IMG/VR virus record: IMGVR_UViG_3300027791_000001
Location: 1-36,331 of that record
DNA from: a virus
Length of the DNA: 36,331 nt
Strand: one strand, 5' to 3'
Numbering within the stretch: position 1 is the first letter of the stretch; every line of letters begins with the position of its first letter. The notes under the pieces were generated by a model. That model was not told the origin of the DNA and ran no database searches. It was given only the letters and a program-made list of their open reading frames with translations. Of the stretch, positions 11,942-31,709 are shown piece by piece. The position numbers and the translations under genes are program-made.

Positions 11942-12048
11942 AGTGAGAAAAAGGTGAAATAGGGTATTGACATGCCTACTCGGATAGCTTTCTATCTTCT
12001 ACATCGAAGCGATTCCCGCCTCGAACCTAACACGAAAAAAACACGACA
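11942..12048 (+). promoter_or_regulatory. Conserved promoter + 5' leader cassette, copy 1
   Basis: GTGAG/GTGAA half-sites 11 bp apart, TTGACA at 11967-11972, exactly 17 nt, TTCTAT, then CATCGAAGCGATTCCCGCCTCGAA...ACACGACAATG. A weak hairpin at 11916-11933 lies upstream. Confidence 0.55.
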
Positions 12049-12387
12049 ATGAAAACTCCAACCAAATTCCTCCAACTAATTAACGAAGCTCAAGACGTTG
12101 CTAACGAAAGCTCACGTCTATGGAGAGCTTGGGATGACGAAGAGAAAGAGTCGATCCGTAACGGAATCGAATACGATCATTACAATTCACAAGCCTCTCT
12201 CGCTTATCGCAATCACGACCACGCAGCCTACGCTCAAATCGAAGGTGGCAAGATCATTTGCGAAGCTACTGGTTCGTCGAACGGATGGACACGATACGGC
12301 AAGCTTTGCTTCTACTTTCTAAAAGACGGAGCAACACAACGCAATCGCTTCTCTAAAGCTAAAGCTCTCGTCGCTCTCGCGGACTAA
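12049..12387 (+). CDS. Hypothetical protein (112 aa), cassette cargo
   Basis: ATG directly follows the conserved leader. No recognisable motif. Confidence 0.6.
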   Translation: MKTPTKFLQLINEAQDVANESSRLWRAWDDEEKESIRNGIEYDHYNSQASLAYRNHDHAAYAQIEGGKIICEATGSSNGWTRYGKLCFYFLKDGATQRNRFSKAKALVALAD

Positions 12388-12428
12388 TCCTCAACCCAGT
12401 TTTCGGATCTGCTCAAAACCGAACTTTT
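12385..12428. repeat. 44-bp unit identical to 12826..12869 (stop codon + weak hairpin + T-run)
   Basis: taatcctcaacccagttttcggatctgctcaaaaccgaactttt occurs twice. It has a TTCGG/CCGAA stem followed by TTTT. Confidence 0.9.
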
Positions 12429-12459
12429 TAACCTAATCAAAAACATAAAAAACACGATC

Positions 12460-12828
12460 ATGAAAAACACTACATCACTATTCGGCAAACGCCCAGATCC
12501 AATCGTCTTAACTGAAAAGTTGAGAGTCGAAAAATCTATTGAAGGCAAAGCACTATATCTCAACTACACAATGGGAACCGATACCAATGCGTATGAAGTC
12601 GTTCACGTTTCTCCTAGCGGCAAAACAGTTTTCGCAAAGGAAATGGAAGTGAATCATAAGAAAGGCGCGGAGCCTTATTCGCAAAGCTGGGAGTTTACTT
12701 CTTCAAATCGTCTCGGAGTAACGAAGTTCACTCTACGCAAAAATGGAGCCTTCAGACAGGTCGGAATGTCTTGCGGATATGCGAGACCATCTAACTCTCC
12801 TAGACATCACTACGACTACAGCTTCTAA
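12460..12828 (+). CDS. Hypothetical protein (122 aa)
   Basis: Preceded only by the 3' part of the leader (aaaaacataaaaaacacgatcATG). The first 14 nt (atgaaaaacactac) are identical to the 25292 gene. Confidence 0.6.
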   Translation: MKNTTSLFGKRPDPIVLTEKLRVEKSIEGKALYLNYTMGTDTNAYEVVHVSPSGKTVFAKEMEVNHKKGAEPYSQSWEFTSSNRLGVTKFTLRKNGAFRQVGMSCGYARPSNSPRHHYDYSF

Positions 12829-12869
12829 TCCTCAACCCAGTTTTCGGATCTGCTCAAAACCGAACTTTT
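12826..12869. repeat. 44-bp unit identical to 12385..12428
   Basis: Exact duplicate including the TAA stop of the upstream gene. Confidence 0.9.
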
Positions 12870-12875
12870 AATTTT

Positions 12876-13238
12876 ATGAATATCATGACTCTCATTCTCG
12901 CTCTCATCGCCGTCGAATCTAATGGCAACGACAACGCCATCGGCGACGACGGTCTCGCCTACGGATGCCTACAGCTTCACGCCGCCTACGTCGCAGACGC
13001 CGCAGAGTATGCAGGCGAAGACTGGACGCATGAGGACGCCTTCGATCGCGAGACATCTATCCAGATCGTTCTCGCCTACATGGATCGCTACGCTACCGAG
13101 CGACGCATCGGAAGGACTGTGACGATCGCAGACGTAGCTCGCATCCACAACGGCGGTCTCAACGGCTACAAAAAGCAAGCCACTCTCAAATACTGGGAGA
13201 AGGTAAAGGCAGAACTAATCTCTCGCGGAGCCTTATAA
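12876..13238 (+). CDS. Lytic transglycosylase (SLT-domain) lysozyme-like protein, endolysin candidate
   Basis: IAVESNGNDNAIGDDGLAYGCLQL matches the SLT signature (catalytic ES ... G-[LAY]-G-L-M/L-Q). Minimal single-domain size of 120 aa. Confidence 0.7.
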   Translation: MNIMTLILALIAVESNGNDNAIGDDGLAYGCLQLHAAYVADAAEYAGEDWTHEDAFDRETSIQIVLAYMDRYATERRIGRTVTIADVARIHNGGLNGYKKQATLKYWEKVKAELISRGAL

Positions 13239-13276
13239 GCTCTGCAATCTAACAACCCAAAAAGCATAAAAAACAT

Positions 13277-30212: not shown

Positions 30213-30233
30213 CCCAACAAAATAACTAACATT

Positions 30234-30599
30234 ATGTCAGCAACAACTGTATCAAACAATGCTCGCACTTTCGTAGCAGGAGAGGCTCTATCGCCTTATC
30301 TTCTCGTCAAAGTCGAATCCGATGGCGACGTAGTTAAGTGTGGCGCGGCTGCGGATCAACCCGTCGTCGGTCTCACTACTGCTCCCGCCGCTAATACCGA
30401 AGCAACTTCCGTCTCTCTAGTGAACGGAGGAGGCACAGCTTTCGCAACTGCTAACGAAGCAATCGCCGCAGGCGATCTCGTCTTCACTGCAGCAGGTGGA
30501 AAAGTCACATCTAGCGTCGCTCTTCACACTAAAGTAGGAGTAGCTATCACAGCATCTTCTGCGGATGACGATATCATCGAGATATCCTTCTTCCAGTAA
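30234..30599 (+). CDS. Head decoration / capsid cement protein (DUF2190-like)
   Basis: 121 aa, Ala/Gly/Val-rich, between protease and capsid. FVAGEALSPYLLVK...VVGLT...EAIAAGDLVFTAAGGKVT fits the DUF2190 pattern. Confidence 0.55.
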   Translation: MSATTVSNNARTFVAGEALSPYLLVKVESDGDVVKCGAAADQPVVGLTTAPAANTEATSVSLVNGGGTAFATANEAIAAGDLVFTAAGGKVTSSVALHTKVGVAITASSADDDIIEISFFQ

Positions 30600-30621
30600 T
30601 CCTTAACTTACTACATCAAAA

Positions 30622-31539
30622 ATGAGCTTATACACATCAGCCACATTCAATCCAGTTCTCTCCGAGGCTCTTAACAAGATCGGCGAAAACCAATTCGTAG
30701 GAACTAAGATCCTTCCTGTTCGCGATGTCGCGACCAAGAGCGGTCAGTATCCTGTTTTCGGCGACGATCAGTTCGATCTCAACGCTTCCAAAGTTCGCGC
30801 TGCAGGCTCTGCCTTCGCACGTCGCGATTTCGCATACGGTCAGCAAGACTACTCTTGCAAGCAATACGCTCTCGAAGGTCTACTTCCTGACGAAGACGTA
30901 ACGCAAGCAAGCGACGACGGCATCTCTGATTCCGCAGCAGCTATCGCTAAGAAGCTACAGCGCGACATCATGGTAGGTCACGAGCTTCGTGTAGCTTCCC
31001 TAATGGCAGCAGCAGGCTTCAACAGCACAAACGCTACACAAACTATGGCTACTAGCGCGACAGCTAAACCTATCGCGGATATCCAGAACGCTGTAGAGCG
31101 TCTTAACGGTAACGGCTTCTACGATGGCATCGCGCTCATCATGGAGACTTCTCTGTTCAACGCTATGCTCAACACAGACGACGTCCGTGGAATCTTCAAC
31201 GGCAACGGTCAATACAGCAATCGTCAAGTCATCCTCGACGCTCTAGGTGTTAATGAAATCATCATCACTCCTACTCGCTACAACAGCGCAGCCAAGGGAG
31301 CCACAGCATCTCGCTCCAAGATCTGGTCTACAAATTCCTACTTCGTAGGTCAAGTAGCAGGAGGCGACTTCGCTAACGGAGGCTTCGGTCGCACACTATC
31401 CTACAGCGCAGACGGCGGCGTCTTCTCTGCAGAGCAGTATCGCGATGAGCCAATCAAGAGCGATGTCCTTCGCGTCTTCAACAGCGTAGACGAGTCGATC
31501 ATCAATACTAACGCCTGCGAAAAGATCGCAAGCGCGTAG
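30622..31539 (+). CDS. Major capsid protein
   Basis: 305 aa, follows the decoration gene and precedes the strongest terminator. G-poor, A-rich leader. The lambda-like order W-B-C-D-E supports the call; the specific family is not verified. Confidence 0.7.
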   Translation: MSLYTSATFNPVLSEALNKIGENQFVGTKILPVRDVATKSGQYPVFGDDQFDLNASKVRAAGSAFARRDFAYGQQDYSCKQYALEGLLPDEDVTQASDDGISDSAAAIAKKLQRDIMVGHELRVASLMAAAGFNSTNATQTMATSATAKPIADIQNAVERLNGNGFYDGIALIMETSLFNAMLNTDDVRGIFNGNGQYSNRQVILDALGVNEIIITPTRYNSAAKGATASRSKIWSTNSYFVGQVAGGDFANGGFGRTLSYSADGGVFSAEQYRDEPIKSDVLRVFNSVDESIINTNACEKIASA

Positions 31540-31561
31540 TCGATATAGCTATCACTTATCA

Positions 31562-31592
31562 GCCTCTCCCGCTAGACGGGAGGGGCTTTTTT
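31562..31592 (+). terminator. Rho-independent terminator
   Basis: GCCTCTCCCG-ctaga-CGGGAGGGGC (10-bp stem) followed by TTTTTT. Confidence 0.85.
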
Positions 31593-31605
31593 GTGCCTAA
31601 AATAA

Positions 31606-31709
31606 AGTGAAAAAAAGGTGAAATATGCTATTGACGGGGGTCATTTTATACTACTTTATCTGTCATATCGAAGCGAGAAACGCCGAGAATAACCTAAAAA
31701 AACACGACA
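31606..31709 (+). promoter_or_regulatory. Conserved promoter + 5' leader cassette, copy 6
   Basis: GTGAA x2 (11 bp apart), TTGACG at 31631-31636, 17 nt, CTTTAT, CTGTCATATCGAAGCGAGAAACGCCGAGAATAACCTAAAAAAACACGACAATG. Confidence 0.55.

Follow-up and report, generated by a model that had tools for sequence, protein, structure and literature searches.

The window, a stretch of 36,331 nucleotides taken at its full length, is the complete, terminally redundant 36.2-kb genome of an uncultured marine phage. Positions 1 to 127 are identical to positions 36205 to 36331, which makes the stretch a circular whole phage genome. The initial annotation had listed six copies of a promoter-leader cassette under the range 11942 to 31709. 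Alignment bore out their positions and placed them on the plus strand; the range is not one locus, and the six are the full set of the genome. The repeated module is ~120 bp long, and we found exactly six copies, all on the plus strand, intergenic, co-oriented with the genes and ending at an ATG (Table 1). The core ATCGAAGCGATTNNCGCCT had 6 matches at up to 3 mismatches versus 0.18 expected from shuffles, and a profile built from the six copies found them again with E values of 1e-27 to 1e-30. Run separately, a promoter-half and a leader-half profile identified the same six places and no orphan half-modules in the genome.

Table 1. Modules, first ORFs behind them (cargo) and terminators in the phage genome; the putative transcription start lies at about (~) the first base of ATCG.
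Feature	Position	Strand	TTGAC	Hexamer	ATCG from	Palindrome	ATG	Remarks
P1 module	11932..12051	+	11967-11971	TTCTAT 11990-11995	12003	12004-12024	12049	GTGA repeats at 11943 and 11954; A/C leader after palindrome; heads early/replication block 12049-19243
P1 cargo	12049..12387	+						112 aa, ORFan
Intrinsic terminator	19270..19301	+						Ends GGCTTTTTAGTA; ahead of P2
P2 module	19302..19418	+	19336-19340	TTGTAT 19359-19364	19372	19373-19393	19416	Heads small-gene block through terminase, 19416-25173
P2 cargo	19416..19514	+						32 aa, hydrophobic
P3 module	25175..25294	+	25210-25214	25233-25238	25246	25247-25267	25292	Directly 3' of terminase large subunit gene
P3 cargo	25292..25528	+						78 aa, ORFan
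Terminator-like hairpin	25573..25606	+						Ends GGCTTTTTCGTG; closes P3/78-aa unit, abuts P4
P4 module	25606..25722	+	25641-25645	25664-25669	25677	25678-25698	25720	
P4 cargo	25720..26442	+						240 aa
P5 module	26430..26549	+	26465-26469	26488-26493	26501	26502-26522	26547	Overlaps end of 240-aa ORF
P5 cargo	26547..26873	+						108 aa, acidic ORFan
Intrinsic terminator	26897..26930	+						Ends GGCTTTTTCGTA; closes P5/108-aa unit; precedes head-tail adaptor and portal genes
Intrinsic terminator	31561..31595	+						Ends GGCTTTTTTGTG; after major capsid gene; left recombination boundary of P6 cassette
P6 module	31595..31712	+	31631-31635	31654-31659	31667	31668-31688	31710	Directly 3' of major capsid gene
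P6 cargo	31710..32096	+						128 aa, acidic ORFan
Intrinsic terminator	32117..32149	+						Ends GGCTTTTTCGTG; after 128-aa cargo; right recombination boundary of P6 cassette

The alignment resolved the module into blocks of unequal conservation. Mean pairwise identity among the six copies was 0.76 for the upstream A-tract/GTGA repeats, 1.00 for the TTGAC block, 0.36 for the 17-18-nt spacer, 0.71 for the hexamer plus 7 nt, 0.85 for the palindrome and 0.70 for the A/C leader. Since conserved blocks flank a near-random spacer, the pattern points to selection on signals and not merely to recent duplication. The two GTGA(A/G) sites 11 bp apart with TTGAC 12-13 bp further, as previously described, were confirmed, and the geometry was even stricter than first thought: the distance from the start of TTGAC to the start of ATCG is 36 nt in all six copies.

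Judged by their sequence, the modules appear to be general promoters of the phage. The same module heads core replication and morphogenesis operons as well, which argues for a general promoter and against the earlier idea of a cassette dedicated to accessory genes. The hexamer yTnTAT has T instead of A at position 2, and a sigma-70 consensus scan of the region with P1 to P5 flagged none of these five modules (P6 lies outside the scanned region). The Bacteroidota -7 box, TAnnTTTG, has a nearly invariant G (PMC6847099); the module hexamer does not have this G, and its distance to TTG is also wrong by that standard. As the hexamer matches neither consensus, sigma-70 or Bacteroidota, recognition may depend on a phage factor. 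The scanned ORFs of the phage contain no RNA polymerase or sigma domain, and the modules are thus most likely read by the RNA polymerase of the host. In relatives, leaderless forms of the promoter stand ahead of four unrelated ORFs, with the ATG in place of the A of ATCG, 6-7 nt past the hexamer, and L270 and L210 have one common promoter with the leader present in one and absent in the other. Transcription would accordingly start at or adjoining the A of ATCG. Divergent, back-to-back module copies occur in L032 and L210.

Downstream of this putative start lies an imperfect palindrome of 21 nt, TCGRRGCG-N5-CGCYNCGA, at about +2 to +22. Its predicted fold is weak in 4 of the 6 copies (-2.9 to -3.5 kcal/mol), and most of 68 distinct copies lack pairing at the two middle positions of the stem. 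More distant relatives have a different palindrome (L179) or none (L183). We tentatively regard it as a 5'-terminal RNA stem-loop that could protect leadered mRNAs without a Shine-Dalgarno sequence; a role as a DNA operator seems doubtful, and one as a nut- or put-like antitermination signal unlikely. The leader that follows is G-poor, A/C-rich and unstructured, and ends in AAAAACACGAC and then ATG(AAA). The absence of a Shine-Dalgarno sequence, noted at the outset, was confirmed, but it is not specific to the cassette, as most genes genome-wide have none and have A/C-rich leaders. We believe that this is a host-related trait of the whole genome, probably because the host is one of the Bacteroidota. 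Wherever a host is recorded for a match to the primase N-domain, the match is to a phage of Flavobacteriia, and the phage itself probably infects Bacteroidota.

The initial annotation had suggested a dedicated activator or an UP-like element, with co-regulation of the six units, which may be so. One form of this idea is that the promoters need a dedicated phage DNA-binding protein at K-TGA repeats and/or the palindrome, either an activator or a repressor at a lacO-like operator. The phased GTGA repeats and TTGAC form three direct K-TGA repeats with a spacing of 11-13 bp, and the heptamer TATTGAC is over-represented in the genome (17 versus 3.7 expected), with an iteron-like array at 20856-20976. 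Promoters that depend on an activator typically deviate from the canonical hexamer, as the module does with respect to both known promoter types. Across the 68 distinct copies the palindrome arms do not vary, and covariation is not above shuffles, which suggests sequence-specific recognition. Several small HTH proteins are also among the phage products, and the one at 14777-15073 has an HTH of the DnaA C-terminal type. However, GTGA changes to GTTT or GTTA in distant relatives while the A-tracts and the 11-bp phasing are retained, a better fit to curvature or an UP-like element, and the leaderless variants retain the promoter without the palindrome. With a single operator shared by early and late units, no temporal order would arise, and no integrase or repressor module was found in the phage. 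Taken together, we consider a dedicated factor possible but doubtful.

The terminators bear on a second alternative. Those reported ahead of copies 2, 4 and 6 were confirmed (-15.6, -16.9 and -21.6 kcal/mol), no canonical terminator was found ahead of copies 1, 3 and 5, and GGCTTTTTNGTR is common to five terminator ends versus 0.75 expected. Neither the adaptor-portal-capsid block (26954-31539) nor the connector-tail block (32172 onward) has its own module, and each lies directly behind one of the strong terminators at the ends of the P5 and P6 cargo units. This implies that simple promoter-to-terminator units cannot explain all transcription and that read-through must occur. In every copy the palindrome is attached to the promoter at a constant distance, and it could then be a nut- or put-like antitermination element; a polymerase started at the module would resist terminators, so that terminator-bearing cassettes could precede essential genes without polarity. 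We find this rather improbable. The short stem is weak, Rfam gave no match, no N-, Q- or put-like component is recognizable, and the L183 lineage has the same post-capsid terminator but promoters without the palindrome. Partial terminator read-through is common and would suffice as an explanation.

The six cargo ORFs (112, 32, 78, 240, 108 and 128 aa) are mutually unrelated, as first reported. For the host-takeover or anti-defence role conjectured for the cargo in the initial annotation, or any other role, the sole functional lead among them is the Cys/His/Asp domain of the P4 cargo: residues 1-130 of this 240-aa protein form a widespread domain of ~130 aa with conserved Cys19, His101 and Asp112, whose structural matches are to uncharacterized phage proteins only. 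Among relatives, full modules were found in ~25 IMG/VR contigs or loci and in 70 of 117 marine metagenome loci, TARA Oceans included. The slots are syntenic, and the first ORF behind the module varies. There are 23 first-cargo families in viral contigs and, with the metagenomes added, 74 distinct proteins that fall into at least 31 unrelated families. Homologues of the 112-aa P1 cargo are 98% identical in L021 and L027 and 45% identical in L025 and L036, and other genes take its place in L026 and L048. Behind the post-terminase module, the first ORF in relatives is instead 62, 70, 86, 126, 170 or 63 aa long. The 108-aa P5 cargo is 66-69% identical in L023 and L058; L039 has a 59-aa ORF instead, and L046 has an extra 105-aa ORF ahead of it. 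The 128-aa P6 cargo was found in L193 and L199, with four other families elsewhere (105, 86, 90 and 34 aa), while L187, L195 and L189 are missing both the P6 module and its cargo. At this post-capsid position, where the flanks are 82-100% identical, genomes carry one of at least five families of cargo or lack the module.

Cargo families also change slot. One family of 80-86 aa occurs in at least three slots, after terminase (L058), primase (L209) and a 99-aa gene (L210); its DNA is visibly conserved across four copies, and the promoters are slot-specific. The 32-aa and 170-aa families occupy two slots each, the former lying behind the module at the P1 slot of L016 and L212, and a homologue of the P4 cargo (30% identical) adjoins the P1 slot in L016, L212 and L213. 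The computational findings that the initial annotation had named as refuting were not seen: cargo position is not fixed, and the cargo is neither structural nor replicative. A portable expression cassette tied to variable ORFans, as originally proposed, is borne out, with the first ORF replaced, added or absent between flanks that are 90-100% identical.

The breakpoints fall into two classes, the leader end and the shared terminator end GGCTTTTTNGTR. L058 and L046 match through the post-terminase module up to AAAACACG and diverge beyond it, and other swaps likewise break at the leader end, just ahead of the ATG. The post-capsid junction reads GGGGCTTTTTTGTG|CCTAAAA in this genome and GGGGCTTTTTTGTG|TTTACATT in the cassette-less L187. 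The two differ by one unit, from CCTAAAA to GGCTTTTTCGTG, between two terminator ends. This indel ends exactly at the junction that had been flagged before. The proposed terminator-promoter-leader make-up of the mobile unit was not upheld at the sole fully mapped indel, where the unit that moves is promoter-leader-ORF-terminator.

A third possibility is that the promoters are ordinary and that cargo variation reflects insertion tolerance at intergenic, highly expressed sites, through illegitimate recombination or other mobile elements and not the repeats. Morons of lambdoid phages are not known to need shared promoters to arise, and some of the cargo differences are mapped to slot level only. 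However, the mapped breakpoints fall at repeated sequences, a 45-bp exact repeat flanks a further swap on both sides, and the same cargo stands behind the module in different slots. We therefore consider this explanation very unlikely.

We think it likely that the six modules are general transcription and translation start modules of the phage that also serve as portable homology for cargo recombination. In our model, the 5' part of the module would often be an intrinsic terminator ending in GGCTTTTTNGTR. It would be followed by two A-tract/GTGA repeats one helical turn apart (~-60 and -49) that may act as an UP-like or curvature element, and then by the invariant TTGAC at ~-36, the unconserved 17-bp spacer and the T-rich hexamer. 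Together the modules would head every transcription unit, namely replication, small genes plus terminase, and morphogenesis. Because one stretch of ~120 bp and one terminator end recur around the genome, they could provide portable homology. Recombination between module copies, within a phage or between co-infecting relatives, would insert, delete, replace or relocate the following ORF, a process that we infer from its end states only. Moron-like units of promoter, ORF and terminator would result, at hot spots that include the junctions after terminase and after capsid, and general promoters would double as recombination hot spots for such units. An integron-like or other site-specific cassette system, with the palindrome as recombination site, might be suggested by an imperfect palindrome adjoining every cassette ORF and by the many unrelated small cargo genes, but we already regard it as highly improbable, with no integrase or recombinase in the scanned ORFs of the genome, breakpoints at leader and terminator ends and none in the palindrome, and a palindrome that lies ahead of the ORF, always equally far from the promoter-like core.

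General promoters with portable homology have a close parallel in the promoter-early stem-loop (PeSL) cassettes of T4-type phages (Arbiol et al. 2010, PMC2839356; Comeau et al. 2014, PMC4122927), and the likeness drawn in the initial annotation is apt (PMC2839356). Each is a composite motif of terminator and promoter that recurs in the genome and has an AT-rich stretch ahead of its -35 box, promoter and terminator activity here being predicted from sequence. Both extend to the start codon of the downstream gene and lie mainly ahead of ORFans at the most plastic spots, and where close relatives differ by an indel or a replacement, its ends fall within the motif in either system. Core modules, too, occasionally contain a PeSL. 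However, our phage has a 36-kb genome of another lineage than the T4-like myoviruses and carries 6 copies, which also head core operons, as opposed to ~50 PeSLs. The module is longer (105-120 bp) and far more stereotyped. Its -10-like hexamer is off the host-type consensus while PeSLs match the sigma-70 consensus, and it has an A/C-rich leader where PeSLs have a Shine-Dalgarno sequence. The conserved, sequence-specific palindrome downstream of the putative start compares with a G/C-rich stem-loop of variable position in PeSLs. We regard the whole as a PeSL/moron-like system in a new phage lineage.

Lambdoid morons were reportedly described by Juhala et al. (2000) and Hendrix et al. (2000) as promoter-ORF-terminator units between core genes. 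The P3/78-aa, P5/108-aa and P6/128-aa units are of this kind and lie between genes that are adjacent in relatives, e.g., capsid and connector in L187, L195 and L189. Unlike lambdoid morons, which have unrelated promoters, these units share one promoter-leader, the module would also drive essential operons, and there is no sign of lysogeny or prophage expression. Short conserved repeats in one orientation are also known genome-wide as the start-associated sequences (SAS/ESAS) of cluster K mycobacteriophages, just ahead of start codons, and as the stoperators of cluster A mycobacteriophages, in intergenic gaps. The SAS, a motif of 13 bp linked to translation, has no promoter, and stoperators are asymmetric repressor sites of temperate phages, whereas here the whole promoter and leader are conserved jointly. 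Lambda nut and HK022 put are conserved leader elements right after promoters of operons that must read through terminators. The position directly after operon promoters is shared, but the analogy is functional only, with no boxA/boxB or put-like structure and no N or Q homologue in our phage. Finally, halovirus HF2 has intergenic repeats of 58 and 29 bp that carry promoters (PMC8707807). Both viruses have repeated intergenic sequence classes carrying virus promoters, but the repeats of HF2 are shorter, and as a virus of archaea it follows archaeal promoter logic.

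All six copies of the promoter-plus-leader module described in the initial annotation (P1 to P6, in order along the plus strand) are real. The core pattern matches the window six times against 0.18 expected, and profiles of the whole module, its promoter half, and its leader half each recovered just these six window sites and no others. Each copy holds, from 5′ to 3′, A-tract/GTGA repeats, TTGAC, a 17-bp spacer, a hexamer, ATCG, a 21-nt palindrome, and an A/C leader ending at ATG. The distance from TTGAC to ATCG is 36 nt in all six. Identity between copies reaches 1.00 in TTGAC and drops to 0.36 in the spacer; the other blocks score 0.76 (upstream), 0.71 (hexamer+7), 0.85 (palindrome), and 0.70 (leader). 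A near-random 17-bp spacer flanked by conserved blocks reads as the signature of a selected two-box promoter. The module would be the general promoter of the phage, as opposed to the dedicated capture device for accessory genes that had been proposed.

Scanning IMG/VR with a pattern and then with the profile turned up ~21 contigs of related phages (handles beginning with L) that contain full modules. Capsid- and primase-based scans added further relatives, including a 36,974-bp, likely near-complete contig of a more distant relative, and a metagenome scan gave at least 117 loci, at least 70 with a bona fide module and many from TARA Oceans. Searched in this way, as the initial annotation had suggested, relatives and metagenomes carry the module with many unrelated cargo families. 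The slots are syntenic, each following one of four features: a 99-aa gene, the primase operon, the terminase, or the capsid gene. First-ORF cargo falls into 23 families in viral contigs and at least 31 families among 74 distinct proteins with metagenomes included. At the post-capsid slot, with flanks 82 to 100% identical, the first ORF is 128, 105, 86, 90, or 34 aa, and L187, L195, and L189 have neither module nor cargo there; the post-terminase slot holds at least six cargo families. Module number also varies, with an extra module upstream of the homologue of gene 19819 in L001, L025, and L027 and only three detectable modules in L195/L213.

Cargo is found in more than one slot. An 80- to 86-aa family lies behind the module at the post-terminase (L058), post-primase (L209), and post-99-aa-gene (L210) positions; its DNA is visibly conserved across four copies, and the promoter halves are slot specific. 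The 32-aa cargo of P2 occurs in the P1 slot of L016 and L212, and members of a 170-aa family are found in two slots. Three relatives have, adjoining the P1 slot, a homologue that is 30% identical to the 240-aa cargo of P4. Divergent back-to-back module pairs, on opposite strands and each with its own cargo, occur at L032:77-284 and L210:4174-4674; no other module was seen on the minus strand.

Several exchanges could be followed to their breakpoints. Between L058 and L046, the match extends across the post-terminase module to ...AAAACACG, past which the two run into unrelated ORFs. At the post-capsid slot, L187 reads terminator-GTG/TTTACATT...ATG (slash, junction) and the window reads terminator-GTG/CCTAAAA-module-128 aa-terminator(GGAGGCTTTTTCGTG)/TTTACATT...ATG, with both ends of the indel in two copies of the terminator end. 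From this indel, the moving unit is promoter-leader-ORF-terminator and not terminator-promoter-leader, as first suggested. The swap of a 122-aa gene (12460-12828) is bounded by a 45-bp exact direct repeat on both sides (12384-12428 and 12825-12869). The repeat copies are 441 bp apart in the window and 669 bp apart in L021 and L027, which therefore carry a different gene between them. The repeat forms a weak hairpin, with a compensatory stem change in L179 (TTCGG/CCGAA to TGCGG/CCGCA).

Terminators of -15.6, -16.9, and -21.6 kcal/mol precede copies 2, 4, and 6, while no canonical terminator was found in front of copies 1, 3, and 5. The terminator end GGCTTTTTNGTR is common to five terminators of the genome against 0.75 expected. 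Three predicted promoter-ORF-terminator units, behind P3, P5, and P6, resemble morons (see the table); the P4-240 aa unit is without a terminator. Also moron-like is the absence of a unit from collinear relatives, where L187, L195, and L189 fuse the capsid terminator straight to the connector gene. Morons are expressed from the prophage and benefit the lysogen, whereas no integrase or repressor was found here.

The exchange of cargo here follows the pattern described for PeSLs of T4-type phages (PMC2839356; PMC4122927) and for morons. Turnover, relocation, and breakpoints together uphold the initial comparison with PeSLs and the view of a portable promoter-leader cassette with shuffled ORFans. 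As in PeSLs, a stem-loop predicted to be able to terminate upstream transcription precedes the promoter (copies 2, 4, and 6), the A-tract/GTGA repeats correspond to the AT-rich stretch upstream of -35, and the module precedes ORFans at sites of high plasticity, where close relatives differ by changes that end in the motif. The promoter boxes of PeSLs match the consensus of the host's primary sigma factor; here TTGAC and the spacer fit sigma-70, and the hexamer fits neither sigma-70 nor the consensus of the probable Bacteroidota host. PeSLs reside in hyperplastic regions of T4-type myoviruses, unlike this 36.2-kb genome. PeSLs have in vivo promoter and terminator activity and mini-circles; for the module, function, regulation, and the roles of its cargo are predicted from sequence. 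An integron-like cassette array was rejected, as the scanned ORFs hold no recombinase and the junctions lie outside the palindrome.

The mode of shuffling is a known one that is new in an uncultured, widespread marine lineage. Promoter/terminator-mediated shuffling, familiar from T4-like PeSLs and lambdoid morons, is thereby extended to a group of uncultured marine phages that is abundant. The case is unusually clean: a single stereotyped module of 120 bp serves few slots, breakpoints are mapped, and IMG/VR and TARA-type metagenomes together yield at least 31 cargo families.

Bases 1-127 of the window are repeated exactly at 36205-36331, which shows that it is a complete phage genome, circular or terminally redundant, with a length of 36,204 bp. 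The plus strand carries nearly all genes. The Gly-rich tape-measure-like ORF starts near 34.4 kb, crosses the window end, and stops at 225. Within the tail module, 4295-6321 encodes a 346-aa ORF and a dTDP-glucose 4,6-dehydratase/epimerase-like gene; homologues of the latter, 50 to 100% identical, are on many 35- to 42-kb metagenomic contigs, apparently a large phage group, and its product may modify sugars on the virion or host surface. Two tandem paralogous genes of 112 and 114 aa (33030-33368 and 33389-33733) have their leaders duplicated too. A 612-aa tail-fibre-like gene has internal 66-nt repeats (7565-8006), and the 517-aa protein upstream of the capsid gene has acidic 9/15-nt repeats (29717-29887).

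Features of the phage genome and leaderless promoter variants in contigs of related phages
Feature	Position	Remark
Tail genes	~230-9400	including dTDP-glucose-dehydratase-like gene
Exonuclease and dNMP kinase		after tail genes in gene order
Replication block	12-19 kb	lysozyme-like, PD-(D/E)XK nuclease, HTH proteins, RuvC-like resolvase, methyltransferase, primase-helicase
Small genes	19.4-22.5 kb	
Terminase	23326-25173	
Adaptor, portal, scaffold-like protein, major capsid protein	26954-31539	
Connectors, tail tube, tape-measure-like ORF		after capsid gene; ORF crosses window end
Moron-like unit, P3-78 aa-terminator	25573-25606 (terminator)	
Moron-like unit, P5-108 aa-terminator	26897-26930 (terminator)	
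Moron-like unit, P6-128 aa-terminator	32117-32149 (terminator)	
Leaderless variants	L197:55-111, L209:3655-3714, L250:545-604, L270:2855-2915	upstream repeats and TTGAC kept

A near-identity search of 25 kb of the window against cultured phages gave no matches. The terminase is <27% identical to any cultured phage, the capsid protein is almost without matches, and terminase, capsid, and primase searches returned remote relatives only. Searches of the window for tRNAs and against Rfam found none. Matches to the N-terminal primase domain that have a recorded host are all phages of Flavobacteriia (hosts Maribacter, Flavobacterium, Cellulophaga, Nonlabens, and Tenacibaculum). Because of these matches and the A/C-rich leaders that lack a Shine-Dalgarno (SD) sequence, we place the host in the Bacteroidota with moderate confidence. 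A leader-pattern scan of genome contigs gave single chance matches in unrelated bacteria, where the profile found no real element, and so provided no prophage or host lead.

An E. coli-type sigma-70 promoter combines TTGACA and TATAAT (A at position 2, T at position 6) across a spacing of 16 to 18 bp. The TTGAC -35 box and the 17-bp spacing of the modules fit this class. Their hexamer, yTnTAT, departs from it, with T and not A at position 2 in 6/6 copies. A sigma-70 consensus scan flagged none of the five modules in its range (P1 to P5; P6 lies outside the scanned region). The primary promoter of Bacteroidota has -33 TTTG and -7 TAnnTTTG boxes, in which T-12, A-11, T-8, T-7, T-6, and G-5 are nearly invariant, and starts 4 to 5 nt downstream (PMC6847099). 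None of the best -7 candidates in the modules (TATCTTTC, TATCTGTC, and TATGTGTT) has G-5, and T-7 is missing from some; P3 orthologues have TACTCTGT at this place. With G-5 missing and leaderless variants out of register, the hexamer region was rejected as a Bacteroidota -7 box. The predicted promoter type fits neither known consensus, and the misfit poses a testable question of how these phages recruit RNA polymerase. We rejected an RNA polymerase encoded by the phage itself: the ORFs scanned contain neither a sigma nor an RNA polymerase domain, and the candidate 915-aa ORF (1576-4323; 40% identical in L204 versus 60 to 83% for neighbouring genes) lies in the tail module without a Pfam or PHROG match.

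Leaderless promoters in relatives helped to place the start. The form TTGAC-N17-CATTCT-T(T/C)AGATC-ATG stands ahead of three unrelated ORFs, and the leaderless variants altogether place ATG 6 to 8 nt past the hexamer, in front of four unrelated ORFs of 68 to 80 aa. In L270, the promoter of L210 is joined straight to ATG where L210 has ATCG. Since these variants put ATG there, we infer that transcription starts at or beside the A of ATCG, 6 to 7 nt past the hexamer. The geometry would be the classical -35/17 bp/-10/+1.

In every copy, and in relatives too, the A-tract/GTGA repeats occupy the ~25 nt before TTGAC, or about -60 to -38 if counted from the inferred start. The distant relatives L179 and L183 (GC 38%) have AAAGTTT-N4-AAAGTT-N-TTGAC or TTGCT at analogous promoters, which were recognised by eye and are not detected by the module profile. 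Because the A-tracts and 11-bp phasing are kept there and GTGA is not, we favor a UP-like or curvature element rather than a specific activator site. The heptamer TATTGAC, the same as in the -35-like box of the modules, occurs 17 times in the window against 3.7 expected, including an iteron-like array (20856-20976) inside a 390-bp non-coding gap. This gap (20773-21164) lies upstream of the terminase gene and an HTH (small-terminase-like) gene. TTGACA/TGTCAA repeats are dense in it, TATTGAC occurs at 20856, 20868, 20958, and 20970, and both strands have several sigma-70 sites close to consensus. The gap may be an origin, a packaging site, or a regulator array.

Independence from an SD sequence, initially regarded as a trait of the cassette, turned out to be genome-wide: most window genes lack an SD and have an A/C-rich leader, including the module-less genes at 12460, 13277, 16995, 19534, and 19819. 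Bacteroidetes are naturally SD-less, with A-rich Kozak-like leaders (PMC6847099). The missing SD is probably a trait of the host. If the host is a member of the Bacteroidota, the module would be a candidate strong, compact promoter with an SD-less leader for organisms without genetic parts. Three sites (6318-6346, 26931-26956, and 32146-32174), at core genes downstream of a terminator or gene end, have TTGACA (or TTTACA), 15 to 16 nt with GAGG/GGAG, and then ATG; these may be a second type of start signal or rare SD-like sites in an otherwise SD-less genome.

The palindrome, TCGRRGCG-N5-CGCYNCGA, lies at about +2 to +22. Its RNA folds at -7.9 kcal/mol in copy 1 and -6.6 kcal/mol in copy 5 and at only -2.9 to -3.5 kcal/mol in copies 3, 4, and 6; copy 2 is unfolded in the minimum-energy fold. 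Across 28 distinct sequences, 84% of cells of the 8-pair stem pair, a level that shuffles equal, and there is no significant covariation. The outer and inner triplets do not vary among 68 distinct copies, in which the two middle pairs are paired in only 53% and 21%. At the corresponding position, L183 lacks a palindrome and L179 carries an unrelated one that is perfect over 7 bp. These data would fit a short stem-loop at the 5′ end, a site on DNA or RNA that a protein recognises by sequence, or both. We slightly favor a role at the RNA level, possibly 5′-end protection of an unstructured SD-less leader, because the palindrome is missing from the leaderless variants and so goes with leadered transcripts.

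We also keep alive the idea that the palindrome is a nut/put-like antitermination signal. Neither the adaptor-to-capsid block nor the connector-tail block has its own module, and both come straight after the strong terminators closing the P5 and P6 cargo units, so read-through of these terminators would be needed. That a phage protein reads the GTGA/TTGAC repeats and that the palindrome makes transcripts terminator resistant or jointly regulated strikes us as improbable. Such a factor-dependent arrangement may be a self-contained system of a Bacteroidota phage lineage, with a promoter class off both the sigma-70 and the sigma-ABfr consensus, and its reader may be, for example, one of the small HTH proteins, which are encoded at 14777-15073, 15070-15360, 19534-19755, and 22026-22532. 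If true, terminator-bounded cassettes could be inserted anywhere, even at capsid and tail gene junctions, without polar damage. The module resembled no curated class of structured cis-regulatory RNA, as an Rfam search had no match at gathering or E-value thresholds. For the putative RNA hairpin, covariation did not exceed that of shuffles, and the folds are weak.

Host-takeover and anti-defence genes usually hide among accessory ORFans, and the module profile or pattern is a sequence handle with which to harvest the accessory ORFans of this lineage from metagenomes. The cargo may have a putative anti-defence or takeover role. In agreement with the initial annotation, which recognised no cargo motif, the six cargo proteins had no Pfam match above the curated cut-off and no PHROG match with known function, and a few weak matches fell below cut-off or were to families of unknown function. 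They resemble ordinary small soluble proteins, except for the hydrophobic 32-aa one. The 240-aa cargo has few close homologues. For this protein, its sequence against PDB gave an insignificant match only (E about 0.009), a profile against PDB and a Pfam scan of 61 family members gave nothing, and a confident structure model (pLDDT 82; >90 over residues 1-160) had no PDB neighbour and only uncharacterised phage proteins as BFVD matches. Residues 1-130 (25720-26110) belong to a family with 317 representatives in metagenomes (E ≤ 0.001), and this ~130-aa domain has matches in many unrelated phages, e.g., Acidovorax ACP17, Cellulophaga phiST, PhiJL001 gp45, and Sinorhizobium phiM9. Conserved residues of the family are Cys19, Gly43-Arg44, His101, and Asp112-Trp113, and our guess is that the 240-aa cargo is an enzyme with a predicted Cys-His-Asp triad.
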